A program made the position numbers and the translations under genes. Shown piece after piece: positions 13,930 through 53,944 of a DNA stretch of 64,000 bases. The DNA is taken from IMG/VR virus record IMGVR_UViG_3300025853_000045, positions 1 through 64,000 of that record; one strand, given 5' to 3'. This DNA is from a virus. Every line of letters begins with the position of its first letter. The stretch's first letter is position 1. The notes under the pieces were generated by a model, which searched no databases, had not been told where the DNA came from, and saw only the letters and a list, made by a program, of their open reading frames with translations.

Positions 13930-14278
13930 TTACTGTTTCTTCTTCGCTTGTCGCGGCCTCTTCGGAGGGAGCAACTTCTTCCACTTCAACTGCCTCTTCG
14001 GAGGGGGTGTCGGCTTCAATAAGGCGAGCGATGAGTTCCGCCTTTGTTCCTGTGACAGGAAGACCGCGCGCTCGTAGGAGTGCTTTGAGTTCTTCAACAG
14101 TCATGGAGTCGTAATCTGTTTCTTGTAATTGGTCAGGGAATGGATTGCCGTCAGTCTTTGCGGCTTCAGGATTGAAGATTTCTTCTTCGATAGGTTCAGC
14201 GATGACTGCTGTTTCAGTCACAGCGCGAATACGCAATGGTCGTTCATCGCCCAAGTGCATACTCTTCATCAGGCGCAC
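13856..14278 (-). CDS. Acidic SAP-domain protein (~135-140 aa)
   Basis: YDSMTVEELKALLRARGLPVTGTKAELIARL is a canonical SAP motif; flanks are Glu-rich. Confidence 0.75.
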   Translation of the reverse strand: MRLMKSMHLGDERPLRIRAVTETAVIAEPIEEEIFNPEAAKTDGNPFPDQLQETDYDSMTVEELKALLRARGLPVTGTKAELIARLIEADTPSEEAVEVEEVAPSEEAATSEEETVSDENDHENDSGLDEPVGEQSSDGA

Positions 14279-15120
14279 CCCATCTTTTCACAGGTTGAAC
14301 CTTGAGGTTCACATTTAGGACAGCACTTACAGCCTCGACAGCCTTTGCAGTCATCACCTTTACACATACTTCTTTTCAGTAGCGCGCCCCAACTTTCAAT
14401 CATTGGATAGCCTTTGTATTGGTCTTCTCCAATGATTCCTCTTTGTCTTAACGATTGCATCAATTCAGGACGAGGTTGGTCGAAAGCACCCATGCCTTTA
14501 GGCACACCTCCGGGTCCCATCTTCGGTTGGCGATTACGCAACCTGCCGTAAGGTTTGCTTTGAAAACCACTTGTTTGAGCGCGTACTCCACCTTCCTCTT
14601 GACGACTTAAATCATCAACTTGACCGGGCGTTGGTCGCGGCATCGCTTGAACTTGTTGTCCAATATCTTCTATATAGCCACCTTCCGTGCTTACCCGCGC
14701 TCCCGACCGGCCCTCGCCACTATCCTCACCTATTTTCGCAGTAGTTGGGAAGTTAGAATAGCGACCTTTGTTATTATCATTTTTATACCTACCTCGATTG
14801 CGAACCACGCCTTGAGCATCCAGCCCTGTTCCGGGTTGAAGCCCTTCCATTTCTTCGCCTTCTTGTCCTTCTAATCGAGCGACAGGGTTGTTACCTCCAT
14901 ACCTTACACCCCATCCTTGTTGTATCGGGTAACTTTCTGTTCTATGCACATTGACAGGTCTTCCTTGTTGAATAGGGCGCGGAACAGAAGTCGGAAAATC
15001 ATCAGGATTGTATCCTCGCATTTGAAATTCTCTTTTATCTTGTGCTGACATGTGGCGCGGCTCGATTCTAAATTCTTCGTCGCCTTTCATCATTTTCCAT
15101 GCTTCTTTCATCGGATTCAT
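14269..15120 (-). CDS. Hypothetical protein (283 aa) with AW..K leader and Cys-rich C-terminus
   Basis: GAGGTGA ribosome site; starts MNPMKEAWKMMK; internal MIESWGALLK; ends CKGDDCKGCRGCKCCPKCEPQGSTCEKMGCA. Confidence 0.7.
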   Translation of the reverse strand: MNPMKEAWKMMKGDEEFRIEPRHMSAQDKREFQMRGYNPDDFPTSVPRPIQQGRPVNVHRTESYPIQQGWGVRYGGNNPVARLEGQEGEEMEGLQPGTGLDAQGVVRNRGRYKNDNNKGRYSNFPTTAKIGEDSGEGRSGARVSTEGGYIEDIGQQVQAMPRPTPGQVDDLSRQEEGGVRAQTSGFQSKPYGRLRNRQPKMGPGGVPKGMGAFDQPRPELMQSLRQRGIIGEDQYKGYPMIESWGALLKRSMCKGDDCKGCRGCKCCPKCEPQGSTCEKMGCA

Positions 15121-15129
15121 TTGTTCACC

Positions 15130-17061
15130 TCACATGTGTAGGAACGCGTCGCGTGAAATGACGCGAACGTGCTTCGGTTTGATTTTCAATTCACTCTTGA
15201 TGACACCTTTGTCTTCAGGGATTGGGAGTGGTGCTTCTGTAATCAGATAGTCGTCGATGATAATGACGACCTCTTCGCGATTGCTTCCTGCACCTGCTTT
15301 GGTCAGGGTGAGCGTGATTGGCTCGGTGAAGTCGTGTGTGCGATTGCTTCTGAACTCATGCCAAATAAGCGGGTCAGAAGCGATAATGGTCATCGACAAA
15401 TCGTATTCCATCGTCTTCTCAATCATGATGTTCGCGTTGCGTGAACCACCGAACGGGATTTGCTCAAGTGAGTCTCCTGCTGTGTTTCGGTTCTCGGCTT
15501 GCGTGTTACCGCGAATTGTATAGATGGCTTCGGAGTTGTTGTTACCACTCAAGGAGAAGTTCGTGACCTGCGCAATGTTTACTCCGAACGAACTGATTTG
15601 ACCGTTGTAAAAGAAGAACGGCTTTTCTGTATTCGGAGCGATACCTGCTTTCTTTCGATTGACGACGCTGTTGCCTGTGTTCTCAAACATTCGGTGCGCG
15701 GTGTATCGGTCTCCTTTGTTAGAATCTTCAAGACGTCCTGTGTCGGTGTAGCAATACAGCGCGTCGAAATTGACACTCAATTTGACTTCTGCATCAGCGT
15801 CAGCCGCGATTGAGAAGTCCTTGACTTTACATCCTTTCCAAACACGCGTCAGTTGTTTGCTATCGTTCGCGGAGCCGGGAGCGGCTTCGTTAGCGAGAAC
15901 GTCAGTTGTGTTCGCGTTGAACGAACCGACGTTGTGTGTGCGAATGCTTGACTCGATAGCAAACGTTGGGAGTGTTGCTCCTGAAAACAACAATCGCGAT
16001 TGGCGGTTGGTGATAGCCCCGTATGTTCCTGCGGTGGTATCGAAGTGTGGAGAGCCGTTGGATGATGCCGCATCGTATTTTACACGCTTACAGGTGTATC
16101 CTGTGTGGCTAAACGAAAGCGGTTCTTCAAGATGGATTCGTCGCGTCGTTGTGTCGATGTATAGCACCTGACGAATTTCGTTTCGCTCGACTTCTTCCAT
16201 GTCGATACCTGTGCCATCAGCACCCCATTTCTTTGAAGAAGCGGCAGGTGTGTCCTTCGGGAACGGCGTTGCTGTTCCATCAACGATGATGATGTATTCA
16301 CCTGCAACAAGATTGGAGAGTGTGCCTGTGTATCCAATGTAAGTATCACCTGCCGCGATGTCCGAGAATGATGTTGATGCAGTTGGGTTGCCACTCATAA
16401 CAGAAGAAGGCACGTCGATGATTTCGCGACCGAGTGAATAGTAAAGCCAACGTGCGCTGTTCATCATTGTTTCAAGCGCACCGCCTGTGTTCTCAAATCG
16501 TTGTGGTTCTTGGATGACCACGTCACGACCGACACCAACAATGTGTGCGCGTCTTTCTGTGACTTTGGTTTCAGGGAGTGAGACGGTCGCGGCAAGACCG
16601 ATGAATTGGTCGGTAAGGACAGATTCGTCCGCTGATACCGCATTGGCGTGGTATGTCATGCCTGTGTCGATGGTTGGTGTGCCAAGCGTGCTGATGACCA
16701 ATTCGTCACCTGCGTTTGAAGATACCCCTAACGCTTCTTTCAAATCGCGGTCGAGAATGAGTGTTGTTCCTCTATTCTCAACGATGGTGTAAGAGTTGCC
16801 TGTGGTTGCGTGGTCGTCAAGATTGAACGAACCGCCACCTATGATGCGAAGTTCCGACCCAACGAGCATACCTTTGGGATAGCGTAGGTTAGATGAAGAA
16901 TCGAAAAACCCTGCACTTGCGCCGCTGAAATTTATCTTGTTGCGGTCACTTCCATCGACCGCGAATTGAAGCCCACCGAACCCGCCGTGTGCGAGAACAA
17001 TGCCGCATTCTTTTCCGAATGTAACTTCGGATAAATCGCCTTTATACACAGTTGATGCCAT
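15130..17061 (-). CDS. Major tail (tube) protein with inserted domains (643 aa)
   Basis: Position between completion protein and chaperones; N-terminal YKGDLSEVTFGKE, then TLPTFAIE, RVWKGCKVKDFSI...VKLSVNF and VTNFSLSGNN patterns typical of siphovirus-type tubes. Confidence 0.7.
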   Translation of the reverse strand: MASTVYKGDLSEVTFGKECGIVLAHGGFGGLQFAVDGSDRNKINFSGASAGFFDSSSNLRYPKGMLVGSELRIIGGGSFNLDDHATTGNSYTIVENRGTTLILDRDLKEALGVSSNAGDELVISTLGTPTIDTGMTYHANAVSADESVLTDQFIGLAATVSLPETKVTERRAHIVGVGRDVVIQEPQRFENTGGALETMMNSARWLYYSLGREIIDVPSSVMSGNPTASTSFSDIAAGDTYIGYTGTLSNLVAGEYIIIVDGTATPFPKDTPAASSKKWGADGTGIDMEEVERNEIRQVLYIDTTTRRIHLEEPLSFSHTGYTCKRVKYDAASSNGSPHFDTTAGTYGAITNRQSRLLFSGATLPTFAIESSIRTHNVGSFNANTTDVLANEAAPGSANDSKQLTRVWKGCKVKDFSIAADADAEVKLSVNFDALYCYTDTGRLEDSNKGDRYTAHRMFENTGNSVVNRKKAGIAPNTEKPFFFYNGQISSFGVNIAQVTNFSLSGNNNSEAIYTIRGNTQAENRNTAGDSLEQIPFGGSRNANIMIEKTMEYDLSMTIIASDPLIWHEFRSNRTHDFTEPITLTLTKAGAGSNREEVVIIIDDYLITEAPLPIPEDKGVIKSELKIKPKHVRVISRDAFLHM

Positions 17062-17785: not shown

Positions 17786-19381
17786 TCACAACACCGTCAT
17801 TACTTCTGTATAGCGCGGTAGTGTTTCAGCCACCTGCGCTTTGAACAATTGATATTTGCTTCCCAAGTCCACGTTCTGTGTTCCTTCGGGCAACAATACG
17901 CTACGGTCGTCAGAAAGAATCAAATCCATCGCGACCAACTTCGTGCATACATCCTCGATAGCCTTCTCGACGTATCGCTCACCATAAACGTAAGACACCT
18001 TGACAGCGTTCCATGAGAAGTAAGGATAGGAGTTGTTGAAGTAAATGACACCCAATTCGTAATCAGCCCACCAATCGCGAAGACGTGCTTCATCGCCTGT
18101 TGTTGTGCCGACGTAGTCAATCTTGAACTTTTTCTGATTGAGTGAAGCACCGTTGGTTGCCGCCGCGCTGATGTCTCCCGCGAGGTCAGTCACACCGTTC
18201 AGCGTCGTGCCTGTGATGCTTGTGTAATATCCATATGTTGCGCCTATGTTGATGATTCCGTATGGTGCGAATTCTGCAACACTCGCAACCGTGATGGTCG
18301 TTGCTGTCGATGAGGATACAGTCGTTGTTGTATCGGTCGCTCCTGAAAACGTCACACCGCTTGATGTGCAAGCATATGTCGCATTCTCACCTGCTTCGCC
18401 ACGACGCATGGAGGTAATCTTGACTTGACCGCCACCGTAGTCAGCGTTCGCGGAAGCCATGAATTCGTGATGCACGTTGGCTGTAATCGTTCCGTCTGAT
18501 TCTGTCACATCTTCAAAGACGAAAGATGGAGTGAATGCTGTTTCTGATTTACCTTTGCGCGCATCTTTGTTGATGAGGTCAGCCAATTGCTGTGCTGTGC
18601 TGACGTTGTCGAATTGCGCTCGGAACTTGGAAGCACCTTCACCCGCCGTGAGTGTCGCGACACCACCACCGCCGGGACACAAGAAGACTTTGTGTTCGGT
18701 AAAGCCTCCTGCGTTTTCAGCGAGTTGTGTGAAGTCGTCAATCTTGAGTCGGATTTCAGCCGCCGCAATTTCGCGATAGTCAGCACCCTGCCAAATTTCA
18801 AGGCGAAGAATCTGTTGCGCGTTGCGAAACATCAAAGGAACAGAACCGACGTAGTCGGTGTAATATCGGCGTCGGTATGGTTTGTATGTGTCGAAGTTGA
18901 GGTATTCAGCCGTCTGCAACATCGGTCGCCATGAGTTGTTTGTGAGGTTGTCAATCTTATCTTGTGTGCGGAGAATGAGCGTTTCAACCTGCGCCTTTGT
19001 AACACCTTTACGCTTACCGTTGGTGAACGATTGAAGATTCTGAACCTGCGCGTTGTCAGCGGTTGTATAGTCACCTGTCAGCGCGTCCGTAAATGACAAG
19101 CGAACGTTGCCTGATGCGCGAGCAATGGCTGTAATCATTCGCTCTTCACCCATTTCAGCATCGCTTGTTATTTCGATGGTGTCACCCACTTCAAACCCAA
19201 CCAATCGGTAATCAGCAGGGCTGATGTCAACGTGCGTCGAACCATCTTCGGCGGCTAAGTAAACAGGGTCGGGGAATGGAATTTGAAGAATGTCAGCAAC
19301 CTTCTGTGCTGACGTGTAGTAAAGCCTATCGGGGAAGAGAGGACGACCTTCGCGCTCACCTGTCTGAAATACGGTCGGCAT
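17786..19381 (-). CDS. Head-tail adaptor-like protein with large insertions (531 aa)
   Basis: N-terminal YYTSAQKVADIL and C-terminal VKVSYVYG...KAIEDVCTKLVA resemble the ends of head-tail connector proteins; position after the capsid genes. Confidence 0.6.
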   Translation of the reverse strand: MPTVFQTGEREGRPLFPDRLYYTSAQKVADILQIPFPDPVYLAAEDGSTHVDISPADYRLVGFEVGDTIEITSDAEMGEERMITAIARASGNVRLSFTDALTGDYTTADNAQVQNLQSFTNGKRKGVTKAQVETLILRTQDKIDNLTNNSWRPMLQTAEYLNFDTYKPYRRRYYTDYVGSVPLMFRNAQQILRLEIWQGADYREIAAAEIRLKIDDFTQLAENAGGFTEHKVFLCPGGGGVATLTAGEGASKFRAQFDNVSTAQQLADLINKDARKGKSETAFTPSFVFEDVTESDGTITANVHHEFMASANADYGGGQVKITSMRRGEAGENATYACTSSGVTFSGATDTTTTVSSSTATTITVASVAEFAPYGIINIGATYGYYTSITGTTLNGVTDLAGDISAAATNGASLNQKKFKIDYVGTTTGDEARLRDWWADYELGVIYFNNSYPYFSWNAVKVSYVYGERYVEKAIEDVCTKLVAMDLILSDDRSVLLPEGTQNVDLGSKYQLFKAQVAETLPRYTEVMTVL

Positions 19382-19746
19382 CAGTCAGTCCTCTCTCGTA
19401 ATCGGTCAAGCCGTTGCATCATTTTCTTCGGTATTCTTCTTGGATAGTGTCCGTGTTGTTGGTAAAACTGTTCAATCATTGCTCTTGCTTCTTTGAGTCG
19501 TCGTCCTTGTTTTAGCATAGCGCGTATGCGTTGCCCCTGTTCGTCTTTCGCTCGTTTAGCGTCAAGTTGTTGTTGATACGATTGAATCTGTGGTGTCATC
19601 TTAGGAGCGGTGGCTTGAGCCTGTTGATTGATTTGCGCTTCTTGTTGCCTCAATCTCTCCATCTCTTCCCTATGTGCTGCGAAAGCAGGGTCATCATCAT
19701 CACCCATGTTCTTGAGCAACAACCATGCTTTGTCGAACGGATTCAT
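19381..19746 (-). CDS. Hypothetical helical protein (121 aa) with AW..K leader
   Basis: Starts MNPFDKAWLLLK; Q/R-rich; translationally coupled on both sides. Confidence 0.7.
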   Translation of the reverse strand: MNPFDKAWLLLKNMGDDDDPAFAAHREEMERLRQQEAQINQQAQATAPKMTPQIQSYQQQLDAKRAKDEQGQRIRAMLKQGRRLKEARAMIEQFYQQHGHYPRRIPKKMMQRLDRLRERTD

Positions 19747-21473: not shown

Positions 21474-22619
21474 TCATTGTAGGTCGCGAATTGAACCGCT
21501 TGCACCAAAGAAAGAACACCATAGTTCACCCATTGTTCGGTAAAGACCTTCTTGTCCAAGACGGTTAATCGCGAATGGGTCTCCGGTTTCAATTCCGGAT
21601 TCAAAGTATTGTGTCGGGATAGCGGTTTGGAACCACAAGTAATCCGTGTCGAGATAGTAAATTCGCGACAGACTGCTTGCACCTTCGTCAGGCATATCCT
21701 TTGTTGGAATCATTGGGACACCGTTGTAAGTAGCAACGATGAATCCTGCTTCAAGACCGGGAACACCCTTGACACCGTTGAAGGTTGGGGTGACACGCTT
21801 GCTGTCCATGAATCGCTGTTGTGATTGTAGGAGTTGTTGAACACGCATGAGTGTGTCGTAGCCTGTAAGCATGACCTTCGGATTACCACCGCGAGTCCAA
21901 AGTTGTTGGAACAATCCGTCCATCTGATTGAGGGATAGGTTGCGGTTTGCGGATGAGGAATCGACGTCGACTTCCGCGCTGTGGAAAGCGGCAGAACCAT
22001 CGCGAGTGATGGAATACATGTCGTGGTCGGTCAACGCGCTAACGTGCGTTGTTCCTGTGGTCATCTTGTCAGGGTCAGAAGTGATTCGGTCAAGAGACTC
22101 AAAATCATTGCCGACAGGAGTGTCGACATCTTCAAGGAGCATTCGGTTGATGTGTTCAGCGTGGTGCTTACCCATCTCTTCCTTGAGGACTTGTCGGACA
22201 TCGCCCATACCGTCGTCCTTGTCAGAAAGGAACATGCTTACTTCCGAAAGGTCGAAAGTGTGCGCGACAGTCTTTGGCTTTGCGGCAACGTGAAGGAATT
22301 CAGGCTTGGAGGTGTCAGGGAGAGTTCCGTTCTCCGCGATACCGCCACCCTTTGCGAAATCAGCGCGCTCGGTGAGGATACGCCATCCGCTTCGTTCCCA
22401 CGGTTTCTTTGGAAGAATAGAGAAGGCGTTAAACTCTTGGTTGAGTTGCGACCATACTTTTCGTCCGTAAATTGCTTGGTATGTTCCTGCGGTGCTGGAC
22501 AACAAAGGCGCGTCGGCCTTGAGAATGTCACCTGCTCCGTAGGTATATCCTGTTTGGGATGCGCCACCGTAATAATAACGCTCCATGTCTTGAACTGTTC
22601 TTACATAATTTCTTGCCAT
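21474..22619 (-). CDS. Major capsid protein, HK97 fold (381 aa)
   Basis: Follows the protease; GGAGGTGA ribosome site; motifs AFSILPKKPW, GGGIAENGTLP, KPKTVAH, FESLDRI, ATYNGVPMIP, IYYLD. Confidence 0.9.
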   Translation of the reverse strand: MARNYVRTVQDMERYYYGGASQTGYTYGAGDILKADAPLLSSTAGTYQAIYGRKVWSQLNQEFNAFSILPKKPWERSGWRILTERADFAKGGGIAENGTLPDTSKPEFLHVAAKPKTVAHTFDLSEVSMFLSDKDDGMGDVRQVLKEEMGKHHAEHINRMLLEDVDTPVGNDFESLDRITSDPDKMTTGTTHVSALTDHDMYSITRDGSAAFHSAEVDVDSSSANRNLSLNQMDGLFQQLWTRGGNPKVMLTGYDTLMRVQQLLQSQQRFMDSKRVTPTFNGVKGVPGLEAGFIVATYNGVPMIPTKDMPDEGASSLSRIYYLDTDYLWFQTAIPTQYFESGIETGDPFAINRLGQEGLYRTMGELWCSFFGASGSIRDLQ

Positions 22620-24043
22620 CAGATTTCACCTCCGTTCAACGCTTTACCTGCGAGTCGGTGGACGTCGTCCCACGACATGTTCGCGAGTTCAGCGGTGTCA
22701 GGAATAGTAACGTTAGCGGTGGAAGCGGACTTTGAAATCATCGAACCACCTGTGGAAGAAACGTTGTCAATGCGGTCATTGAGAGCAAGGACAGCCTTTT
22801 GTAATTCAACCATAGGACCGCGAGCGTCGAATTGACTCTTAGCGATTGCATCAGCCTCCGCCTTTTGCTCCTTCATGAAGCGGTCGGTAAAGTGGCTGTT
22901 CAAGTCAGACTTGAATTGTTGCTCAGTCGCGGCGGCTTTGAACACTTCGTAAGCGGATTCAATCTCACTTGGCGAAACGTTGTTCGCGTTGAGATAGTCG
23001 CTCTTAATTACGTTCTTGTTACCGCTTGGCGCGGAGCCAAAGTTCGGTTGAGGACGCTTTCCGGAGTCGTCTTCACCTGCACCTTCAAGAGAGCCTTGTC
23101 CGCGCATGTCAAAACCTGATTCACCGGGTCCGTATCCTTTGCTGAAATGGTCGCGAGCCGCGAGCGGGTCGAAACCTGCACTCTTAGCGGTCGATTCAAG
23201 CCATGTCAGGTAGTCCATCGTTATCATATCGTCACCTTTTTGTGTCATATCATCACCATACATCATGTCTTCTTCATCCTCGTCGTCTTCGGGTTCATCT
23301 TCGTCGTCGTCGCGAGGTGGAGTCTTTTTCTTTGGCTTGTCGTCACCGAATGGGCCGGGTTCGCCATCTTGGTCGCGGTCGAGAGGGAGTGGCATAGCCG
23401 CGTCTTTCTCTTCCTTGTCTTTCTTCTTCTTATCGTCGTCCTCTTCCTTGTCCAATTTTTTAGACAAGCGTTCAAGGACACTTTGTAATTCACTCATTGT
23501 GTTTGTCATTGTATCACCTGTGGTGTCTTCCTTGAGGATACGAAATTGCGCTTCAGGGTTGATTCCCTTTTCACAAATAGTAACCTCATGGAGTTCCATA
23601 CGACGAATCTCGCGGTAATCTCCGCGTGTTTGGTCGCTCTTGTTGACGCGCTCAAATGCTTGACCACCAATAGAAAACGAGCGCAGGTTTCCTTTGCGGA
23701 TTTCAGAAGCCACTTCTCGCGCCTTCTCGATGTCGCCACGCAACTTGATGACGACGAACATGCCTGTGTCATCCACTTCGGATTTCCACAGACGTCCTGA
23801 TGAGTCAGTATAGGAAGGAATGACTGTTCCGACTTGAATGTTGGAGTGTGCGAGTTGCACATTGCGAAATCCGTCAGCCTTCATGAAGTTGCCAAATGCG
23901 TTTTTCAAAGCACTACGGGTGATTAAATCTCCCTGCTTGTCAACCATTTCGACAGAAGCATATCCCGCGACAACAAGGTCGTCACCAATACCCTTCAAAA
24001 TGAGGGGATTGGAGGAACCCGTTGGAGCCGCAAGAATCGCCAT
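22619..24043 (-). CDS. Prohead maturation protease (HK97/XkdF-like) fused to scaffold (474 aa)
   Basis: VAGYASVEMVDKQGD, catalytic His (LAHS), catalytic Ser (RSFSIGG), LHEVTIC..GINPEA; acidic and coiled-coil C-terminal half. Confidence 0.9.
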   Translation of the reverse strand: MAILAAPTGSSNPLILKGIGDDLVVAGYASVEMVDKQGDLITRSALKNAFGNFMKADGFRNVQLAHSNIQVGTVIPSYTDSSGRLWKSEVDDTGMFVVIKLRGDIEKAREVASEIRKGNLRSFSIGGQAFERVNKSDQTRGDYREIRRMELHEVTICEKGINPEAQFRILKEDTTGDTMTNTMSELQSVLERLSKKLDKEEDDDKKKKDKEEKDAAMPLPLDRDQDGEPGPFGDDKPKKKTPPRDDDEDEPEDDEDEEDMMYGDDMTQKGDDMITMDYLTWLESTAKSAGFDPLAARDHFSKGYGPGESGFDMRGQGSLEGAGEDDSGKRPQPNFGSAPSGNKNVIKSDYLNANNVSPSEIESAYEVFKAAATEQQFKSDLNSHFTDRFMKEQKAEADAIAKSQFDARGPMVELQKAVLALNDRIDNVSSTGGSMISKSASTANVTIPDTAELANMSWDDVHRLAGKALNGGEI

Positions 24044-24061
24044 TGCCTCACGGATTCATCG

Positions 24062-27000
24062 TCATGGTATATCAAGGGAACTGTTCTCAATCGCGATAAC
24101 GCCATCATCTTCAAGCGTTGCTACTTCGCCTTCACTTGTTCGCAGTCGCTTGGTTTTCTTTGCTGTCGCGGGCTTTTCTTCGCTATCGTCGCGTGCCGCA
24201 GGGTCGAAGTCAGGCATGGTGTCGTCGTTGATATTCTGTGTAGGTCCTCGCGGAGATTCATCAGGTGTTGCATAACCTATACCCAACCCCTGCACACCTG
24301 TGCTTGTAATCTTCTCTTTCGTGATATGTTCCAAACCACGCTCAATCAAATCAAGACCGCGCTTGATAACTTCTTCTTCATCTTCCAACACATGCTTTCG
24401 TTTCTTACTGTGACCCGCAGGTGGTTCAGGTTTAACTTCGTCATATTCAGGTTGTTCAACACCCTCTTCTTTCAACAACATCGCCGCTTTCAATTCCCAA
24501 TATGGCTCTTGGTCATGCGCTAAACGAACGAGATACTCGTTGCCCCAAACACTTGATTGAGGTTCGACAACCCACACACCATCTTCGATACGCGTCTTAC
24601 AGATTACGTCGTCATCGAAAGCAGGGAAGTTGATGATGATGTTCCCCTTCTTCATCGCGACGCGCTGTGCAACGTGGTGTTCACCTGACATGACTGCGAG
24701 CGTTTCCACACTATCGGCGGCTAACGGTTCGTTGTCTGTAATCTTCCCACTTCGTATTCTGTATGTTGGATGCTCACCGTTGGATGCGCTCACACCTGTG
24801 CATTGAACCGTAGCAAAGTCTCCTTCTTTCAACCCTCTTGGTCCTTTCGCGCTTCCGACCATCATGTAATGTTCTCCATCAATTTCTTGTGCGCGCTTAC
24901 CATAATGTTCAGGGTGCATGAGTGGACCAACGCCGATGGTGTAATTCTTACCGCTACGCGATAAGATGACGACATCGACCATCTTTTCTTTTGTTAGCAA
25001 AACCCACTTAGGATGTCGAGGCTCTCCCTTCATGTAGGTTGCATTTGCATCGCGAAGAAGGATGTCCATGTCCTTTTCTTTTCGTAATCCTTCGATGGCA
25101 ACTGCCAATCCTTCATCGTCGCTACGCTTTGTGTTGATGGGTTCAGGCATCTTGATGTGTTCACTCGATTCGTATTGAGCGCGGAGGTGACGGATACGGT
25201 CTTTCGTTGGCATGTTGTGTGTGTCTTCATCCGCTGTCTTCAACAAATCAATAACGGTCATCATTCCATCATGAAGAATCGCGTGAACCGTGAAGTCTTT
25301 TTCGTAAACCTTCTCCACCTCTTCCAAAATCTTCTCATCCAATTCCACTTCTCCGTCTGTGCTGTATGCTGTTAATTTGTCTTTCTTCTTTGTCGCGATG
25401 ACATGCTCGCCCTGCGGATAAAGACTGATAACCCAATCACCTGTAAATCCGCGCAAATGTTCCATATCTTTGAGGTCGAAGATGCGATGCATGAATTTAA
25501 CAGGTTGAGGTTTGCCGTCTTCTTTCGTTATGATTGAGTCGTCGATGATACGGTCGAACGATGTCATAATGTTGGGGTCGTCGAGACCTGTGGATTGTTG
25601 CGCTCTCGTATCGAAATGTGAAGGGTCGTTGGAGATGTGATTTGACGCGCTGTAATCGTATGGTTGTAAGAGGGGATTGACGTCTCGTAATCCATCTCGC
25701 GAAACAACAAGTCGCATGTCGCCATTGTTCGGTAAAGGGTTTTGAGCATTCTTCGGTGTCTCAATAAGGAAGTTGCCATTTCTTTTCAGCGCGTCTTTGT
25801 TGAAGATGACAGGAGGTTTGACGTTCTTACCGAACTCAAATTGATTGTGTCGGCTAAGGTAAAGCGGTATGAGTGTCGCGTTTGAAGGACTGCCACCGCC
25901 AACAGGAAGGTCGCTGTGAGTTATATCTTTGTTGACTTTGTATGACGTTGTTTGGTCGTTTAACGCGAAAGCAAGACTGCGCAACTTTTTCAATTTTGAA
26001 CTGCGGTCTTTCTTTGAACCTGATGGGAAAATTTCGTTGACATTGAAAATCTGTTTTTGCGACTGCCGTATCCCTTTACCTAACACAGCAACGTCGCTTC
26101 CCATTTTCGTTTTGTCAAGCAATTGACCCATGACAGCGTGGATTGCGTTGAATTCTTTTTGCATCGAAAGCGGTTTGCCTTCGTCGAATATCGCATCACC
26201 GCCATGCAGTATGCCGTGTTTTTCTGAACCCAACTTGAATATGTCAGCGCGATTATGAACGTGAGACAAGTTCTCAAAGATGTCTCCATGTAATTCATGA
26301 GGGTCTTTGATGACTGCCGCGAGCGTTTCTTCTTTTCGTCCTCGGCGTCGTGCATCTTGAGTTTTTGAAGGAGCGGGTGCTGAAAGAGGTTTTGCGAGAC
26401 GATTGTGTGCTAAGTAACGCGAAACAAATGCATCTTCAAACGATATGCCTTGTTCGTTCGCCGCTTCTTGCACCTTCTCGATAACCTTGTTGAAAATTTT
26501 TCGCGTTCGGTTGTCGCCGTCGAACAAACGATTTGCTAACTCATATCCCTTCGGAAGACCGTCAGGGTATTCGTGAGCCAAGCGCATTCGGTCTCCACCT
26601 CCCGTCATGTCGTGATGGTTGCGTCTCACTCTCAATTTCTTAATGCGGTCTGCCATTTCAGGCGTAATGAGTGTGTGCATTGGTATTTGTTTGTCGCTCT
26701 CCATACCCGCGATGGTGTATCCTGTCATCTTCCCTTTCGCCATCAATCTCGACTGTTCATCAGAAGTGAGGTGTGTGGCTATGTATTCAGCGATGTGCAG
26801 ACCATATGCCGTCATAGCGGTCGCTTCGTTGTTCTCAACGTTCGTCATACCCTCATATCCGAATGCTTTAGGGTAGTGGGCTTCGATAGCAGGACGAACC
26901 ATCATATCGAAGACTTCTTTGACAACATCGTGCGTCTGACGTCCCAACTGCATCTTGTCGTGGAACGGACTTTGTTCATCGTTGTCTTGGTAAAGATGTG

Positions 27001-29997: not shown

Positions 29998-30348
29998 TCA
30001 AGAATAATCGGTGATTGAATACGCTCCTTCAGGATTCTTGTCAGATGGGTCGCCTTTCTTGTTTTCGTGCGCTTCAAGAGTGTTCGGATGGCCGATAGGT
30101 GTGAATTTGATTTCTTCTTTCTTCGGAGCAGTTCGCGATACATCTTCTGTGGTGATGCGTCGTTGATTGGTGTCGTAGTATCCTGTGCGAACAGGTTCAA
30201 CACCTGTTACATTCGCGAAAAGGTCAGCACTTTCTGTGCCGAAGTCTTTGGTTTCTTTGTCGACTTTTTCAATCAAATCGTTGGCTTGCTTGATAAGTTC
30301 ATCAACGTCAGGCGCGAGTTGTCCTGCTTCGACTTTCATTGGTTTCAT
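29998..30348 (-). CDS. Hypothetical head-module protein (116 aa)
   Basis: GGAGGA ribosome site; 4-nt overlap with the upstream gene. Confidence 0.7.
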   Translation of the reverse strand: MKPMKVEAGQLAPDVDELIKQANDLIEKVDKETKDFGTESADLFANVTGVEPVRTGYYDTNQRRITTEDVSRTAPKKEEIKFTPIGHPNTLEAHENKKGDPSDKNPEGAYSITDYS

Positions 30349-30695
30349 TGGTCAATCCTCCTTCCTTCTGCTTCGGCGGCTGTATTTGCCATTGCGTGAA
30401 TTTCGTCCCATGACATATCGTGCCATTCTTCGTTTGATTCAGGCATCGACATACCTACGTCGTCAATGGCGGCGGCGGCTTTACTGATAACATTGTCACG
30501 GTCTCCGCGAAGTGGGTCGCCCCACACATCTTCATTCGCAGGAGTGTTGGCTCGGACAAAGCCCGCGCGCTTGAGTAACAGTTCAGGTGTATCCATACTT
30601 TTTCGCATCGACGTGATTTCAGCATCCATCGACTCCATTTTACTGATGAGTGCTTTCATCAGTATCATAGCATCGGTTTGCTCACTCACGCTCAC
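30345..30695 (-). CDS. Scaffold-like small protein (~116 aa)
   Basis: Coiled coil plus C-terminal MSWDEIH, matching MSWDDVH at the end of the protease/scaffold. Confidence 0.65.
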   Translation of the reverse strand: MSVSEQTDAMILMKALISKMESMDAEITSMRKSMDTPELLLKRAGFVRANTPANEDVWGDPLRGDRDNVISKAAAAIDDVGMSMPESNEEWHDMSWDEIHAMANTAAEAEGRRIDQ

Positions 30696-31030
30696 ACCTG
30701 ACCTTGCTTCTTGAAGTGTGAACCAATGCGGTCAGGTCCGATGTATCCCATAGGTCGTTCGCTCTTCGCGATGACGCCTTGAGTGCTGTTGAATTGAGCG
30801 ACAGGGAAGCCACCTGCGAATCGGTCGTTGACACCGAGAACACGGTCGCCGCCTTGTTCGGACTTGTAAATTTGACCCACGTCATCCGCGAGATAATCAC
30901 TTGTGGATTGGATACTGCGAAGAAATTGTTCGGCTGAAACGAGGTCGTTGTTTGCAAGCGCGACCTTGAATTCAGATAGCGCGGTTTCCAATTTGCGAAC
31001 CATCGGGTCCATCTTTTGCAATAGGCTCAT
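30692..31030 (-). CDS. Hypothetical head-module protein (112 aa)
   Basis: Start moved to MSLLQKMDP to remove overlap with the portal gene. Confidence 0.7.
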   Translation of the reverse strand: MSLLQKMDPMVRKLETALSEFKVALANNDLVSAEQFLRSIQSTSDYLADDVGQIYKSEQGGDRVLGVNDRFAGGFPVAQFNSTQGVIAKSERPMGYIGPDRIGSHFKKQGQV

Positions 31031-31049
31031 ACGGTTTACGAGGAAAGCC

Positions 31050-31066
31050 CACGCCTTTAAGTTATC
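31050..31066 (-). promoter_or_regulatory. Candidate TATA-like promoter for a leaderless transcript
   Basis: GATAACTTAAAGG about 25-30 nt upstream of ATG 31030, with no Shine-Dalgarno sequence. Confidence 0.35.
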
Positions 31067-31067
31067 C

Positions 31068-34833: not shown

Positions 34834-34837
34834 GTTA

Positions 34838-35687: not shown

Positions 35688-35689
35688 TT

Positions 35690-39018: not shown

Positions 39019-40816
39019 TGAGTGCGCCTCCACAAGACCGCTTGATAGCGCGAACCACGTCATGCGTCGTGTTAAAAGATTTCGCTATCACATTCCAATC
39101 TCCGAGCGACATAGCAATCGCGCGGACATCAAGACTCGACATACCTACATTTTCGCCCAACTGTTGCATATCATACGAATCCATAGGGTCGTATTTCTGC
39201 ATCAATGAGCCACCTGCGTCATGCATTTGCACACGCTCCATAATCGTCGCGATGACACCCATTGGGTCATCGTTCGACTTCATTGAGAAAGATGGACCGA
39301 ACCCACCAAACCCTCCAAATTCAGGCGGAGCAAATCCGCCGAATGGCACTTGGGCTGAACCGCCTTCGTCAGCCAACGGGTCAGCCGCGAGAGGTTTTTG
39401 CGTTTCGTTCTCGGACGGCATTGTGGTCAATGGCTCTTGAGGTGGGAGCAACGGCTCAACAGGTTGTTGTTCCGCGCCTATCGTTCCTCCACTCAAGTGC
39501 GACGGGAAGGAGTCGTGCAAATGGTCGTAGTTCGTATTGAATTTACCGCGCATATCATGATGTTCGTCAGCAAGACCGAGCGAATCCATGTCGATTTGTC
39601 TCGCTCTCGACGAAGCATATTCGACGTAATTATCACGCACATTCGGTCTTGTAAGTGGAGTGTCGCCAAGTTCGACGCCTGTTTCTTCTGCTGTCTTGAG
39701 CATAGCCATGATGTCGATTGCCGCATTCTTTTGGCCGCGTTCATCATCGCCAATAAGACGACCAAATTGTCCGACGTGTTTCGTGTAAAGTTGGTGAATA
39801 TCGCGATTTTTGTCAATGCCGATTTGTTCTCGTATGTCTTTCATTATGGTGCGCAAACCTGTTGCACGTCCATCTTTACCTGTTCCTCCGCCATACAACA
39901 ACTGATTGACGGGAGCGCGAGCCATCTCTCTCGCTGTGTTTTGGTCGTATCCCAACTCCATCAATTCATTCATGAAATCAGTCGACATACCGCCCTGCGT
40001 TGATGGATTGAAGAATGCATTCGGTAAAACAGACACGATGGACATAGGTGATATTTCACCATACGCGGCAGTTTGAGAGTGCAATTGTTTGTAATGCGAA
40101 GGGAATTTTGTGTTCTTCTTTGACGTTGGGTCAGCCTCATTTGACGTGTATCGTCGCGTTACTCCACTTGTAATTTGTTGAGGTTCGATAACGTTCTGTC
40201 TTGCACCCAAACGTGTATCTATACCGCGCTTCTTTACTTCATCTTGGAACTCTTTGGAAAAATGAAATGCCGCTGACTCAAGATGCACACCAAGCGTTGG
40301 GTGCGCTTTGTTGTTCGCGTGGTTGTTGATTAACTTCCCATCTTCTGTTCTTGTTCTTCGTTGTGCTGTCGGCACACGCTTGTGTTCGTGCGAACCGTAG
40401 TGATTGTTCATGTATTCAGGATGGAGACGACCATCTTCTCCGAACGGAATTGGGACGGTGTGAAAGTCGTCGTTGTTGTCGCGTTTGATTTTGTTGAATC
40501 GCATCGCGGAAGCATTCATGATTTCTTTCGCCATACTCAAAGCGTTGGATTCTGTTGTCGGCTTTCGCCTGACGCCGTTTTCATCAATGTATCCTCCCTT
40601 CATGATTTCATTGGCTAAAATCATCGCGCTTTTCTCCATAGGGAATTGACGCATGTGCGCAGGTATCTCCTTGAAAGGCTTACCTGTTATCGAATTGATG
40701 TAAAAATGTGATTCGTTTTCGTGGTCAGAATCTTCAGGTGGGAACGACATAGGGTGCATGACCCCATCTTCGTCCATGTAGTAAACGCCTTTTCCTTTGA
40801 GGATGATGTCGCTCAA
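39011..40816 (-). CDS. Hypothetical protein (601 aa), possible internal virion protein
   Basis: TTG start overlapping the upstream TGA after GAGGTGG; begins MSDIILK|G; several h-h-K sites near the C-terminus. Confidence 0.7.
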   Translation of the reverse strand: MSDIILKGKGVYYMDEDGVMHPMSFPPEDSDHENESHFYINSITGKPFKEIPAHMRQFPMEKSAMILANEIMKGGYIDENGVRRKPTTESNALSMAKEIMNASAMRFNKIKRDNNDDFHTVPIPFGEDGRLHPEYMNNHYGSHEHKRVPTAQRRTRTEDGKLINNHANNKAHPTLGVHLESAAFHFSKEFQDEVKKRGIDTRLGARQNVIEPQQITSGVTRRYTSNEADPTSKKNTKFPSHYKQLHSQTAAYGEISPMSIVSVLPNAFFNPSTQGGMSTDFMNELMELGYDQNTAREMARAPVNQLLYGGGTGKDGRATGLRTIMKDIREQIGIDKNRDIHQLYTKHVGQFGRLIGDDERGQKNAAIDIMAMLKTAEETGVELGDTPLTRPNVRDNYVEYASSRARQIDMDSLGLADEHHDMRGKFNTNYDHLHDSFPSHLSGGTIGAEQQPVEPLLPPQEPLTTMPSENETQKPLAADPLADEGGSAQVPFGGFAPPEFGGFGGFGPSFSMKSNDDPMGVIATIMERVQMHDAGGSLMQKYDPMDSYDMQQLGENVGMSSLDVRAIAMSLGDWNVIAKSFNTTHDVVRAIKRSCGGALNG

Positions 40817-42042
40817 CCTATTCCACCTCTCCTGACATACAAGTCGTATGCGTGTGCGCCCCATCGCGTCGCATCGTCATCAGGGTCGGTCTCGGTTGGA
40901 CCTGTTGGATTTGATGTCTCCCCACCTGACGAATTCGGTGTGGACGTTTTATCTTCTTTATGCATCATGCGTCGCAACAAACGATTCAATTTGTCCATCA
41001 ACGTTCGATATTCAATCCTATCGCGAGGTGATATACCTACCTTGACTTTCTGTGCGCGTCCTTTCATGAATTCTTCGGAAGCGAGAATCGAATCCGCACC
41101 ACCCGCAAGTGAAGTTGCTTCTGTCATTTCTTGACCCATTGGTGTTGGTGCTGTGCGCGGTTGCCGAGTTGCTTTGCTGTGCAACTTCTTACGACCGCGA
41201 CCGCGAGGTGGTTTTGTCAATCGAGACATCGGAGACATCGTTGGGATAGGCGGTGTAATGTCCTGCGTTGGTTGTGTTTGTCGAATTTGTTGTCGTGCCG
41301 CTTCCGCTTCGCGTTGTCGTGGGTCAGGATATGCTTGTTTAGCACGCGAACGGCCTGTCGCACCACCGACACGGATAAATCGGGTTGGCTGACGGTATGT
41401 GTATCCTGTTCCAAACGAAGCATACGGAGCGCGAGCGGCAGAAAGGGCTGACATACTCCCCATCTGTCGAACGTTTCCTGCTTTGAGCGGAATACCGCTT
41501 CCTTTTCTTCGCCTTCGACGCTTGAGTGATTCGACGGTGACGTTTTTCCTCGCTTTACGCTTCTTACCTGTTTTCGCTCTCGCTCTCGCTCGTATTGTTG
41601 AAATCGTCGTTGTCTTCTGTGGTTTTTCGTCGTCGTATTTTGGCTTGTCGCGTTTTTTGCGAATCATTTCAAACGCGTCGTCGATGTAATCCGTCGTCGA
41701 GAGCATGATGTTCGCACCGAGACCACTCGCGTTCGGATTCGCACCGTCGATAGCCTCGCTTTGTCCGACCTGTCCTGTCATTTGACCAAGTTCAGCCTGT
41801 TGCTTCATATCGCTGTCTTCTTCATCGTCAGGATTCTTTTGAGGAATCTTAATTTTCATATGTTGAAGACCTTGCAATTTGCGTGCGCGCTTATCTTGTT
41901 CTTCACGCTTCTTTGCATCGTGAAGTGCGCGCTCTTCGGAGTCTTCGCGACCAACCGATGAATCTTCTTGCAATTCTTCCGCGCTTTGACGCGGATTGAA
42001 TCGAAAACCTGCGGTGCTTCCTGTTCCCGCAGTTCCAACCAC
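40813..42042 (-). CDS. Hypothetical Arg/Lys-rich protein (409 aa)
   Basis: Acidic N-terminus, then IDDAFEMIRK followed by a highly basic region. Confidence 0.7.
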   Translation of the reverse strand: MVGTAGTGSTAGFRFNPRQSAEELQEDSSVGREDSEERALHDAKKREEQDKRARKLQGLQHMKIKIPQKNPDDEEDSDMKQQAELGQMTGQVGQSEAIDGANPNASGLGANIMLSTTDYIDDAFEMIRKKRDKPKYDDEKPQKTTTISTIRARARAKTGKKRKARKNVTVESLKRRRRRKGSGIPLKAGNVRQMGSMSALSAARAPYASFGTGYTYRQPTRFIRVGGATGRSRAKQAYPDPRQREAEAARQQIRQTQPTQDITPPIPTMSPMSRLTKPPRGRGRKKLHSKATRQPRTAPTPMGQEMTEATSLAGGADSILASEEFMKGRAQKVKVGISPRDRIEYRTLMDKLNRLLRRMMHKEDKTSTPNSSGGETSNPTGPTETDPDDDATRWGAHAYDLYVRRGGIG

Positions 42043-43822: not shown

Positions 43823-44704
43823 TCACGCTACACCATCATTTGATTCTGTCGGTAAAGGAAGAGGGGCGGTTTGTTGCTGTGCTTGATGTATCGCGAGCGC
43901 ATCAAACAACAACCGCGCATTGTTCCCTGCTTGAAATTGACGCATATCAAACACAATCATCACTAAATCATTCATTCCTGTCGCGGTATTGGTTAAATGT
44001 GTGACAGGAATGTTATCTTGTTTGAGCATTTGAAAGAATGGCTCATATTTAGCGAGTATTGGAGGTGTGTTGTCCTTCTTTTTGATGCTACTGATTGGCA
44101 CAGCAACGGTCGAAACACCCTTTTTCAACTTCGCTTTAAGCGTCCCACCGCTCGCTTCCTCTTCTTTCTCGTCTTCTTTCTCCCATTTCGTCAACAAATG
44201 ATACAAATGAAGGTGTTCAGGGCAGTATGTTGCGCGCAATTTACGCCCACTTGTGACTTTTTCGCGTGCTACAAAGGCTTCAACCTCGCCTGTTACAGGG
44301 TTTTTGAAGTACAAATCCCACAACGTTTGACCTGTTTCTTCGTCTCCAACCTGCTCGTAAATGTTCCCTGCATGTCGTAAAAGGTGTTCAACATCGCATC
44401 CGTCAACGCAACATCGCATTGTGTTGGTATTGTAACGATATTTACCGCCCCAAATGCGTTTGAGAGAGAAAATTGACCTTTTTGTGGGTTTCAAGAGGCG
44501 ATATGCTTGCTTTATGTCCTTTCTTCGCGCTTTTTTGGGGTTTGGGTGCTGTGAAGGGTAAAAATTGACCTGCGGAACTTCGATATGTTGGCTCGCATTG
44601 CTCATCGCGGCCTGTGCGGATGCCTGTTGTTGCATCTGTGCGAGGCTCATTTGTGTCTGTGCGGCGAGGCGTAAGAGGTCGTTTTGAGGGGTATTACCAA
44701 GCAT
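43823..44704 (-). CDS. Hypothetical protein with probable Zn site (293 aa)
   Basis: Q-rich N-terminus; CCVDGC...YCPEH. Confidence 0.7.
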   Translation of the reverse strand: MLGNTPQNDLLRLAAQTQMSLAQMQQQASAQAAMSNASQHIEVPQVNFYPSQHPNPKKARRKDIKQAYRLLKPTKRSIFSLKRIWGGKYRYNTNTMRCCVDGCDVEHLLRHAGNIYEQVGDEETGQTLWDLYFKNPVTGEVEAFVAREKVTSGRKLRATYCPEHLHLYHLLTKWEKEDEKEEEASGGTLKAKLKKGVSTVAVPISSIKKKDNTPPILAKYEPFFQMLKQDNIPVTHLTNTATGMNDLVMIVFDMRQFQAGNNARLLFDALAIHQAQQQTAPLPLPTESNDGVA

Positions 44705-53248: not shown

Positions 53249-53320
53249 TGTTATAGCGCACGACAACCATGCCCTTGAAGATAGCGGTATTTCTTTAATC
53301 GCGAATAGCATGCGTTGTTT

Positions 53321-53944
53321 ATGGGCGCGCCGTTTGCACAGTCTTGGGCGTTTCTCAAAGCCGAGGCTTACATCAATATGAATAGTGATGTTCACAATCA
53401 AACTATTGTTCCTCAAGTTGAGGGTGGTATGCATAGTCCAAAAGGCACTTTCATCTCTTCACTACCGCGCTATCAACAACCAAGACCCGATGGACCAAAT
53501 TACCGACGCGGGGGTTCAGTTCCGCGTAATTGGGATGAAAAACACGGCAATCAGCGATTTACGGGAGTGAATGTCGCTAACCAATGGCAACACCTTCGCG
53601 ACGAAAATCCAACCGTTGACGAGGAAGAATTGCAAGATTCATTTGCTGATAAGTTCGCTACTGCTTCTGCACATGAGGATGTTCACGGTTTGACAGACGC
53701 CGAAATAGGCACATGGGCGGCACACGCGGTTGGTGGTTTCCCTGCCAATTTAGCGGCAACCAACTTTTCTGTTCCTAAAAATCGCGTAAAAGATTGGAAA
53801 ACGCTTCGCGACATGGCTCATGAATATGGTGCTTACAGCCTAACTGAACCCGAAGCAAAGAAGCGGAAAATGGAGTATTACCACTTTGCTCCTTATTTGA
53901 CGGGTGAAAAGGATATTTCAGAATTACATTCGGGTTCGCGTTAA
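53321..53944 (+). CDS. Putative zinc metallopeptidase-like protein (207 aa) with SW..K leader
   Basis: HEDVH (53672-53686) plus downstream HEYGAY Glu; starts MGAPFAQSWAFLK|A; TTTAAT about 25 nt upstream. Confidence 0.6.
   Translation: MGAPFAQSWAFLKAEAYINMNSDVHNQTIVPQVEGGMHSPKGTFISSLPRYQQPRPDGPNYRRGGSVPRNWDEKHGNQRFTGVNVANQWQHLRDENPTVDEEELQDSFADKFATASAHEDVHGLTDAEIGTWAAHAVGGFPANLAATNFSVPKNRVKDWKTLRDMAHEYGAYSLTEPEAKKRKMEYYHFAPYLTGEKDISELHSGSR

Follow-up and report, generated by a model that had tools for sequence, protein, structure and literature searches.

About a tenth of the late genes of the magrovirus studied here encode the same short peptide tag. The tag is carried by otherwise unrelated proteins, is late-gene-specific and does not depend on position within the protein. 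It is most likely a short amphipathic docking helix. We give about an even chance to the reading in which this helix docks proteins in the procapsid interior and also serves as a cut site for the head protease; tagged proteins would then bind the procapsid, be cleaved after the terminal Lys and might be delivered to the host.

The analyzed stretch of DNA (the window, 64,000 nucleotides) belongs to a magrovirus (Magrovirales, viruses of Poseidoniales). Its capsid protein has its best cultured matches in HCTV-1, HVTV-1 and HCTV-5, at 33% identity, and relatives of the virus are 91–107 kb in length. Magroviruses are marine head-tailed viruses of about 100 kb with separate structural and replicative modules, and their capsid protein is about 33% identical to those of haloarchaeal siphoviruses (PMC5434244). 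More than 600 marine matches are found in IMG/VR. Magroviruses rank among the most abundant viruses in the surface ocean; none has been cultured, and the majority of their genes lack annotation. We found no mention of the tag in three papers on magroviruses, and no magrovirus isolate or virion proteome.

In translations of the window ORFs, the tag is 10–12 residues long and its last residue is Lys. Eight strong copies are present, five N-terminal, two internal and one C-terminal, with the consensus M-N-P-h-[DNE]-x-[AS]-W-x-h-L-K (Table 1). Two degenerate copies, PFDIANSVLK and EAAFGYLEK, are supported by homologues. The tag peptides and coordinates given in an earlier sequence-only reading of this DNA were reproduced exactly by translation for the N-terminal, internal and C-terminal copies. 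Codons vary between the copies and the peptide is held, as that reading had noted.

Table 1. Features of the window; a slash after Lys (K) marks a candidate cut site.
Feature	Position	Strand	Remarks
N-terminal tag MNPFDKAWLLLK	19711-19746	-	121-aa ORF 19381-19746; 24.6 bits
N-terminal tag MNPMKEAWKMMK	15085-15120	-	283-aa mostly low-complexity ORF 14269-15120; 14.2 bits
N-terminal tag MIPLEDAWALMK	35461-35496	-	67-aa Cys-rich ORF 35293-35496; 20.7 bits
N-terminal tag MGAPFAQSWAFLK	53321-53359	+	207-aa ORF at the late/early junction; 18.6 bits
Weak N-terminal tag (L/M)SDWWLFLK	35963-35989	-	TTG start; 99-aa zinc-finger ORF 35690-35989; 12.0 bits
Internal tag MNEAWVFMK	35000-35026	-	ORF 34838-35308, between DUF5872 domain and C-terminal module; 23.1 bits
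Internal tag MIESWGALLK (W-x-x-L-L-K spacing variant)	14374-14403	-	Precedes 33-aa Cys-rich module
C-terminal tag IASWDALLK, then GLNIR and stop	37411-37437	-	556-aa ORF 37393-39063, immediately upstream of large terminase
Decayed tag FDIANSVLK	34693-34719	-	Directly 5' of DUF6321 domain, ORF 34417-34863; 14.4 bits
Decayed tag-like EAAFGYLEK	35628-35654	-	ORF 35493-35705
Looser variant IDDAFEMIRK	41656-41685		Candidate only
HK97-fold major capsid protein	21474-22619	-	Candidate maturation site I32-L33-K34/A35-D36 at 22512-22526
Head protease, S78 domain (residues 25-172) fused to acidic helical scaffold-like region	22619-24043	-	Pfam PF04586
C-terminal docking-type motif MSWDDVHRLAGKAL	22637-22678	-	Protease-scaffold; kept in 44 sequence variants
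Small scaffold-like protein	30345-30695	-	C-terminus MSWDEIHAMA, 30387-30416, same motif as scaffold
Portal protein	31068-32897	-	Pfam Phage_portal 37 bits, just below curated cut-off; synteny with HVTV-1
Large terminase subunit	35986-37386	-	Pfam Terminase_6N and Terminase_6C

The tag is family-wide and occurs far above chance. We trained a nine-column scoring matrix on 87 tags taken from other contigs and applied a threshold of at least 10 bits. It matched the window eight times, and reversed-translation decoys of the window gave no match. Matches and decoy matches in three near-complete relatives numbered 12 and 0, 19 and 1, and 19 and 3, which speaks against the alternative that the motif is no more frequent than in shuffled proteins. 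We also used a DNA pattern that encodes M-N-P-M-[DN]-x-A-W only, with nothing fixed after W. The pattern was continued by x-h-[LIMV]-K in 49 of 52 IMG/VR matches, and in none of the 37 matches that 596 Gb of cellular genomes gave when scanned for the N-terminal form. The absence of this form from cellular genomes indicates that the tag does not mimic a host signal.

The tag is restricted to the late, morphogenetic arm. The enrichment expected for late over early genes was observed, with 30 of 212 genes tagged in the late arm compared to 1 of 146 in the early arm (Fisher p = 1.2e-6); about 10–20% of late genes carry it. The matrix scan of the window located no copy on the plus strand beyond 53.4 kb, in agreement with the sequence-only reading, which had seen none beyond 54 kb. 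The claim that the peptide is portable among unrelated proteins was also borne out, as the tagged bodies are mutually unrelated and mostly lack a Pfam family. Pfam and PHROGs searches returned no family for most of them or for the proteins encoded upstream of the terminase. Module labels assigned earlier held in part: Pfam supports DUF5872, DUF6321 and a weak DnaJ-type zinc finger (CxxCxGxG, in ORF 35690-35989), but no HiPIP family and no peptidase family was found. A bare HEDVH string is present in ORF 53321-53944, which has no Pfam peptidase family.

Homologues are informative about individual copies. Orthologues of ORF 19381-19746 in many contigs keep the tag, with variable sequence past the K, and the tag is also kept in homologues of ORF 35293-35496. 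The copy (L/M)SDWWLFLK is the weakest of the N-terminal ones at 12 bits; SDDWWLLLK is found in G001 at the syntenic place. A ribosome-binding-like GAGGTG lies upstream of the ORF that starts with MNPMKEAWKMMK. PFDIANSVLK is a decayed true tag, and homologues of the DUF6321 protein start with MNPMDEAWAVLK or MNPMDEAWAVLKAAKKKKSKPFHGYNP. EAAFGYLEK is replaced by TAWDLLEKK at the same place in the L133 and L139 homologues, which supports its earlier listing as a looser variant. Another proposed variant, SDFYDALLK at the start of a 1974-aa ORF, is not a tag: it is preceded by conserved residues, and homologues have EFVRALFAK or DFAQAIINK in its place. Additional candidates were rejected. Homologues of DNLKAWAFL (31040-31066) have stop codons in that stretch, which is not coding. 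IKQAYRLLK (44489-44515) and FSWNAVK (17999-18016) each belong to the conserved interior of a single protein family without tag hallmarks, and MLDSAWKTV (34313) is not conserved.

Our analysis also revealed tag-plus-module units that fuse and split, and ORFs with multiple tags in relatives, both of which are new. The units are found both fused and stand-alone. The Cys-rich module that follows MIESWGALLK is a stand-alone ORF elsewhere, starting with MNPFRESWGELLK in L118 and MNPMNDAWGLLRK in L120. The DUF5872 part of ORF 34838-35308 matches alone in L133, L139 and L104. Multi-tag ORFs contain two to three internal copies of [GS]-E-P-M-D-L-A-W-R-L-L-K in low-complexity sequence, with LLK invariant even where W is changed to M or F. 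Because tags occur N-terminally, internally (where they are repeated) and C-terminally, they behave as docking motifs and not as N-terminal signals. Also new are the match of the sister-lineage tag to scaffold C-termini, the capsid h-x-K/A-D site and the tag upstream of the terminase, all described below.

The end of the tag resembles a protease site. Tag endings read h-L-K/[AG][ND]. Past the K, the enriched residues are A, G and N at P1', N at P2' and P at P3', and K/[AGS][DN] is observed after tags 16 times, compared to 2.2 expected. The window encodes an HK97-type (S78) prohead protease just upstream of the HK97-fold capsid gene; it matches PF04586 at 39.7 bits (curated cut-off 21). Its own candidate cut sites, LILK/G (K17) and FRILK/E (K171), are invariant in 41 sequence variants. 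The HK97 protease cleaves at K103/S104 (PMC10275583). As judged from the sequences, the terminal Lys of the tag fits the known P1 preference of this type of protease, and also fits a conserved h-x-K/A site at the boundary of the capsid protein N-arm.

This putative capsid site is located at a place equivalent to that in HK97. K34-A35 is invariant in 12 relatives. Among the window protein and 118 homologues (29–53% identical), the K34 column has K in 93 of 119 sequences and R in 13 of 119. The site consensus is [LIVF]-x-K/A-D-[AD]-P and follows 16–108 unconserved residues. An AlphaFold model computed with 119 sequences (pLDDT 87; 12 sequences gave pLDDT 35) is ordered from about residue 34. It aligns with HK97 gp5 with a Z score of 17.5, with model residue 49 matching HK97 residue 119. 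By this alignment, K34/A35 is predicted to precede the aligned region by about 15 residues, near the position of HK97 K103/S104. The model also aligns with family 2 encapsulin shells, with a Z score of about 18. Conservation of the site could instead have structural reasons. A literature search for N-terminal sequence data on halovirus capsid proteins, which could anchor the K/A site, found none.

The low-GC sister lineage links the tag to the scaffold. Its tag is MSWEDILK, with the general form M-[ST]-W-x-x-[IV]-L-K, and a second matrix was built from the first six residues. In L158–L160, the only matches to this matrix, besides one true tag, were at the C-terminal ends of the protease-scaffold and a small scaffold-like protein. 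Its top two matches in the window are the C-termini of the same two proteins, MSWDEIHAMA of the small scaffold-like protein (16.2 bits) and MSWDDVHRLAGKAL of the protease-scaffold (14.8 bits). These two C-terminal motifs co-vary across lineages. The sister-lineage tag resembles the scaffold motif. The docking part of the window-lineage tag gives the scaffold C-terminus only 8.9 bits, rank 13 in the window, so the scaffold link rests mainly on the sister lineage.

Based on these similarities, we propose the following arrangement. The residue at -3, together with the A-W and h-L pairs, would make up the hydrophobic face of the tag helix. The tag would recruit a fast-changing set of small accessory proteins, which are mostly basic, zinc-binding or disordered, into the assembling procapsid. 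The tag probably shares its receptor with the conserved C-terminal helix of the protease-scaffold, and this receptor is likely to be the capsid protein, through its inner face or its N-terminal propeptide. The HK97-type head protease would then read the invariant h-L-K together with the [AG]-[ND]-P after it. A cut after the K would free the cargo from the tag and divide multi-tag ORFs into pieces, and the same protease may trim the capsid protein at K34/A35. A more complete version is put forward tentatively, as one that we consider somewhat doubtful: magroviruses and the sister lineage would share a plug-in address-and-cut system derived from the scaffold C-terminal helix, in which any module gaining a helix of about 10 residues, at either end or in strings along a polyprotein-like ORF, is loaded into the procapsid, cut by a Lys-specific HK97-type protease and carried with the genome into the host. 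Further observations count against the docking-and-cut model. It does not explain the C-terminal tags upstream of the terminase, and the late half of the cultured relative HVTV-1 (record positions 55000-102319) contains neither the tag nor the scaffold motif.

The gene upstream of the large terminase suggests the packaging motor as a rival receptor. In the window and in G001, G002, G003, G004, G005 and G007, the gene in this slot ends with the tag, 2–5 residues before the stop codon. The tag helix could dock on the large terminase or packaging motor, in which case cargo would be taken to the packaging vertex and not to the scaffold or shell. Small terminase subunits are usually encoded in this slot, and binding of the small subunit C-terminus to the large subunit is established for P22, lambda and HK97. 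The shared tag is the sole common feature that BLASTP detects in the slot proteins between lineages (those of the window and G001 are homologous). The 37393-39063 product shows small-terminase-like synteny and a C-terminal helix, but no recognizable DNA-binding domain or terminase family. More broadly, the slot proteins vary from 186 to 556 residues, are partly low-complexity and have no terminase family match in Pfam or PHROGs. One is GNAT-like by language-model features, a weak lead, and the G006 gene is without the C-terminal tag. Docking on the terminase would also leave unexplained the copying of the scaffold C-terminus by the sister tag and the protease-like ending, and we know of no terminase that serves as a docking point for dozens of cargo proteins. 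We consider this alternative unlikely. We also rejected readthrough of the stop codon between the upstream ORF and the terminase: these ORFs share a frame in the window and G001, and are out of frame in G002 and G003.

A role in folding, holding or turnover is quite unlikely. The tag would then be a recognition motif for another viral or host partner, such as a viral group II chaperonin. A Cpn60/TCP1 chaperonin is encoded in all four relatives tested, from both lineages, and the N-terminus of the T4 capsid protein reportedly directs proteins to GroEL. However, the likeliest client, the capsid protein, has no tag, and a chaperonin would hardly be needed by many of the tagged bodies, which are tiny, disordered or zinc-knuckle peptides. 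The strictly invariant L-K with [AG]-[ND]-P fits a protease site better, and the cellular scan described above returned no N-terminal tag form.

It is very unlikely that the tag is a membrane-binding amphipathic helix that takes late proteins to the host membrane or a site of assembly or egress. The tag is short, amphipathic and position-independent, and the membrane-targeting helices of MinD and FtsA are likewise short and amphipathic. Such helices accept wide sequence variation, whereas A-W and L-K hardly vary even between lineages with only 38–56% identity in their terminases. The tag is also close to neutral in charge, and its likeness to the C-terminus of the scaffold suggests that its partner is a protein. 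Finally, the motif could be mainly an inherited leader, a recombination joint for cassette swapping with little protein function of its own, as tag-plus-module units fuse, split and move and conserved targeting sequences flank a hypervariable locus in T-even phages, but this is highly improbable given that codons differ freely under a held peptide, internal copies keep the full score and 10–12 codons are short for homologous recombination.

The proposed docking in the procapsid and cleavage by the head protease have partial counterparts in other systems. The analogy drawn earlier to the T4 capsid targeting sequence is apt. The T4 internal proteins (IPI-III and Alt) and the T-even internal-protein locus similarly have an N-terminal peptide of about 10 residues on unrelated, fast-changing small head-module proteins. 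As in T4-type systems, the magrovirus peptide is common to otherwise unrelated head-module proteins. The T4 sequence ends in the head-protease consensus, which the magrovirus tag may also do, and T4 cargo is likewise basic. However, the magrovirus tag ends in A-W-x-h-L-K and the T4 sequence in [LI]-x-E. The magrovirus protease is of the S78 HK97 type and not T4 gp21. The magrovirus tag is also found internally, repeated and C-terminally, and the host is archaeal. Because the protease is a Pfam S78 HK97-type enzyme and the site ends in Lys, the magrovirus system is an analogue and not a member of the T4 type.

Other systems share single features. In encapsulins, short, portable cargo-loading peptides at either cargo end, or repeated in disordered regions, bind the inner face of an HK97-fold shell. 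These are cellular nanocompartments, not viruses, with no protease step, and their cargo-peptide consensus consists of G-S-L-type motifs, unlike the magrovirus tag. The C-terminal tail of the HK97 protease and the coat-binding helices of P22-type scaffolds are short terminal segments that dock inside an HK97-fold shell. The magrovirus protease-scaffold has a comparable invariant C-terminal motif, copied by sister-lineage tags. The signal is present only on protease or scaffold in HK97 and P22, whereas a related signal is found on dozens of genes in magroviruses. In Staphylococcus phage 80alpha, a short N-terminal leader on unrelated proteins (ribosomal protein L27, capsid, scaffold) is removed at a fixed site by Prp. 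In that case the protein imitated and the cutting protease both belong to the host, whereas the magrovirus N-terminal form is absent from cellular genomes (0/37). In the giant phages phiKZ and SPN3US, the prohead protease cuts N-terminal propeptides of head and ejection proteins (PMC10052503, PMC5694885). A single consensus serves there for the processing of many head proteins, and packaged proteins are later ejected. However, these propeptides are long and mutually dissimilar, with only the cut consensus (after Glu) in common and no shared docking helix.

The shared tag gives 10–20% of late magrovirus genes one common, testable role, as head-carried proteins, and leads to a predicted processing map of the head protease. 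New cargo genes may, in this view, be recruited through gain of a ten-residue helix related to the scaffold docking end. In metagenomes, tags provide a practical marker for candidate host-takeover or anti-defence proteins. If the proposal is correct, T4-style cargo targeting would be found in archaeal viruses and with HK97-type proteases too, a short, position-independent peptide would become available for loading proteins into HK97-fold shells, and the system would be the first for capsid cargo targeting in archaeal viruses.

The tag, an amphipathic helix motif of about 10-12 residues ending in Lys, is real, abundant and family-wide. Translation of the window confirmed eight strong copies where the sequence-only reading had placed them, and codons vary among the copies as it had noted. 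A simple pattern found 107 copies in 80 related contigs. Nearly all are M-N-P-[MLIF]-[NDE]-x-[AS]-W-x-[LVFI]-L-K, directly at the ORF start. The matrix scan proposed by that reading was performed with a matrix of nine columns whose training set excluded the window. At a threshold of at least 10 bits, it gave eight matches and no decoy matches in the window, and 12/0, 19/1 and 19/3 (matches/decoys) in the near-complete relatives G001, G002 and G003. An independent check relied on a DNA pattern that specifies M-N-P-M-[DN]-x-A-W and nothing further. The next residues are x-h-[LIMV]-K in 49 of its 52 IMG/VR matches and in none of its 37 matches in 596 Gb of cellular genomes. This indicates that the scanned N-terminal form is viral, not a copy of a host signal. 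The expected late-gene enrichment was also found: 30 of 212 late-strand genes carry a tag, compared with 1 of 146 early-strand genes (Fisher p = 1.2e-6). The window has no tag past 53.4 kb, in agreement with the earlier observation of none on the plus strand beyond 54 kb.

The cellular scan also returned a recurring 16-residue ORF, MNPMD[PL]AWTPG[CY]C[SN]CC, starting right after a stop codon (L167, L171, L182, L185 and L200, from Polaromonas, Gallionella and other Pseudomonadota). It is unrelated to the viral tag and possibly encodes a small Cys-rich peptide.

The window belongs to a head-tailed virus. Its minus strand carries the late genes, from 3 to about 53.4 kb; the early genes, beyond that point, are on the plus strand. 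By capsid protein, the closest cultured viruses are the haloarchaeal siphoviruses HCTV-1, HVTV-1 and HCTV-5 (33% identity). Magroviruses have been described with the same relationship (PMC5434244). Capsid-derived search patterns matched more than 600 marine IMG/VR stretches, and 599 were confirmed as relatives. For comparison we used G001 (102.9 kb), G002 (106.9 kb, with terminal repeats) and G003 (91.2 kb), with terminase identities to the window of 96%, 69% and 56%, respectively.

Features of the window and its relatives
Feature	Genome	Position	Strand	Basis
Tail-tube-like protein	window	15130-17061	-	Pfam
HK97-type capsid protein	window	21474-22619	-	Pfam
S78 prohead protease fused to long acidic, helical region (protease-scaffold)	window	22619-24043	-	Pfam
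1974-aa ORF	window	24062-29986	-	
Small scaffold-like protein	window	30345-30695	-	
ORF containing MSLLQKMDP	window	30692-31249	-	
Portal	window	31068-32897	-	Pfam
484-aa ORF	window	32894-34348	-	PHROG 5046
Large terminase	window	35986-37386	-	Pfam
Second motif	window	37860-37931	-	
Second motif	window	58995-59027	+	
Second motif	window	61592-61624	+	
Second motif	window	~62202	+	
Cpn60/TCP1 chaperonin	G001	33797-35218	early	
Cpn60/TCP1 chaperonin	G002	104663-106087	early	
Cpn60/TCP1 chaperonin	G003	22856-24295	early	
Cpn60/TCP1 chaperonin	G006	27522-28967, 117224-118660	early	

Three other late ORFs were noted. Pfam assigns no family to the 1974-aa ORF, which is flanked by the protease and the portal region. 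Its place corresponds to that of HVTV-1 gene 115 (1313 aa, annotated zeta toxin), and its product is possibly a large protein inside the head. Residues 315-418 of the 484-aa ORF, which lies between the portal and the cluster of tagged genes, are HNH-endonuclease-like (E = 2e-10). Homologues of the ORF containing MSLLQKMDP, where the conserved protein begins, have stop codons in the 5' third, which is probably non-coding.

The claim that the tag sits on unrelated proteins is supported, and the module labels stood in part: Pfam assigns no family to most tagged bodies, apart from DUF5872, DUF6321 and weak zinc-finger matches. Homology among contigs revealed that tag-plus-module units both fuse and split. 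The Cys-rich peptide after the internal MIESWGALLK (ORF 14269-15120) is elsewhere a separate ORF, beginning MNPFRESWGELLK or MNPMNDAWGLLRK. The tag of DUF6321 is canonical and N-terminal in other contigs and, in the window, decayed and preceded by a 48-residue extension. DUF5872 is found both with and without a tagged C-terminal module. Long ORFs in G002 and G003 contain two or three internal copies of [GS]-E-P-M-D-L-A-W-R-L-L-K, about 110-245 residues apart within low-complexity sequence; W is sometimes M or F, and L-L-K is invariant. W-x-x-L-L-K, with a one-residue insertion, is a genuine variant. With its fusing and splitting units, internal repeats and spacing variant, the tag is portable and position-independent, acting like a docking motif rather than an N-terminal signal.

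The docking helix may be linked to the scaffold. The last residues of the protease-scaffold form an invariant motif, [LM]-A-x-M-S-W-D-D-V-H-R-L-A, and those of the small protein encoded after the portal read M-S-W-D-E-I-H-A-M-A. A sister lineage of 30-35% GC (L143-L164, the contigs behind genomes G004-G007) has the same head-module order, with 38% terminase and 43% capsid protein identity to the window. The tag there, shorter than that of the window, has the form M-[ST]-W-x-x-[IV]-L-K and stands as MSWEDILK at the N-terminus of many ORFs, several per contig. A matrix of the first six residues, L-K left out, was scanned over all six-frame ORFs of at least 60 residues. In three 16-kb head modules it matched only one true tag and the C-termini of the protease-scaffold and small protein. 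In the window, the top two matches are these same C-termini (small protein, 16.2 bits; protease-scaffold, 14.8 bits). The two also co-vary by lineage (VHRLA/IHAMA, LNDLV/IDELV, DIHKMV/DIHKMV). The matches and co-variation suggest one receptor for both C-termini, common to the sister lineage's tags. The docking part of the window's own tag ranks the scaffold C-terminus only thirteenth, making the scaffold link indirect in this lineage; its tag has drifted further than the sister tag.

The large terminase is raised as a rival receptor by the gene directly upstream of it, which ends in a tag, 2-5 residues from the stop, in the window, G001-G005 and G007. The equivalent gene in G006 lacks a C-terminal tag. 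Beyond the tag, nothing common is detectable between lineages in these proteins, and they match no family. Among these genomes near-stop tags were seen only in this slot, with a few more in other contigs. The viral group II chaperonin, encoded by all four relatives tested, is another candidate partner. The G006 record (184,733 bases) has two copies each of terminase, protease and chaperonin, which score differently and are separated by 89.7-91.5 kb; the record looks like two related genomes joined rather than one 185-kb genome.

The window also has a second portable motif, in which M-[FY]-D-L-T-L comes after a stretch of acidic residues. It lies four residues from the C-terminus both in ORF 61178-61636 and in an SF2 helicase of the early region (57468-59039), once within 61827-63842 and twice within the late 556-aa tag-ending protein. 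The same patterns did not find it in G001, G002 or G003.

Candidate cut sites were compared among the capsid protein, tag and protease. HK97 protease cleaves its capsid protein at K103/S104 (PMC10275583). In our capsid protein, K34-A35 is invariant in 12 relatives. Of 119 sequences (the window's and 118 representatives 29-53% identical to it), 93 have K in the K34 column and 13 have R; the consensus here, [LIVF]-x-K|A-D-[AD]-P-[VLI]-L-T, follows 16-108 unconserved residues. The AlphaFold model (pLDDT 87) is poorly defined to residue 33 except for a helix at 9-17, and ordered thereafter. Model residue 49 aligns with HK97 residue 119 (Z 17.5), so K34|A35 is about 15 residues ahead of the first aligned residue, predicted to be within one residue of the HK97 K103|S104 position. 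Tags end in h-L-K; beyond the K, P1' is enriched in A, G or N, P2' in N and P3' in P, and 16 instances of K|[AGS][DN] compare with 2.2 expected. Two invariant sites occur within the protease itself: LILK|G at K17, and FRILK|E at K171, where the S78 domain ends. We infer that these sites would fit one Lys-directed processing rule.

The magrovirus papers examined, including PMC5434244, do not mention a motif of this kind, and our search found no magrovirus virion proteome; as far as could be found, the tag is unpublished. The most fitting interpretation is of a counterpart to the T4 capsid targeting sequence that combines a scaffold-like docking helix with an HK97-type protease, with a putative destination and a putative cut.
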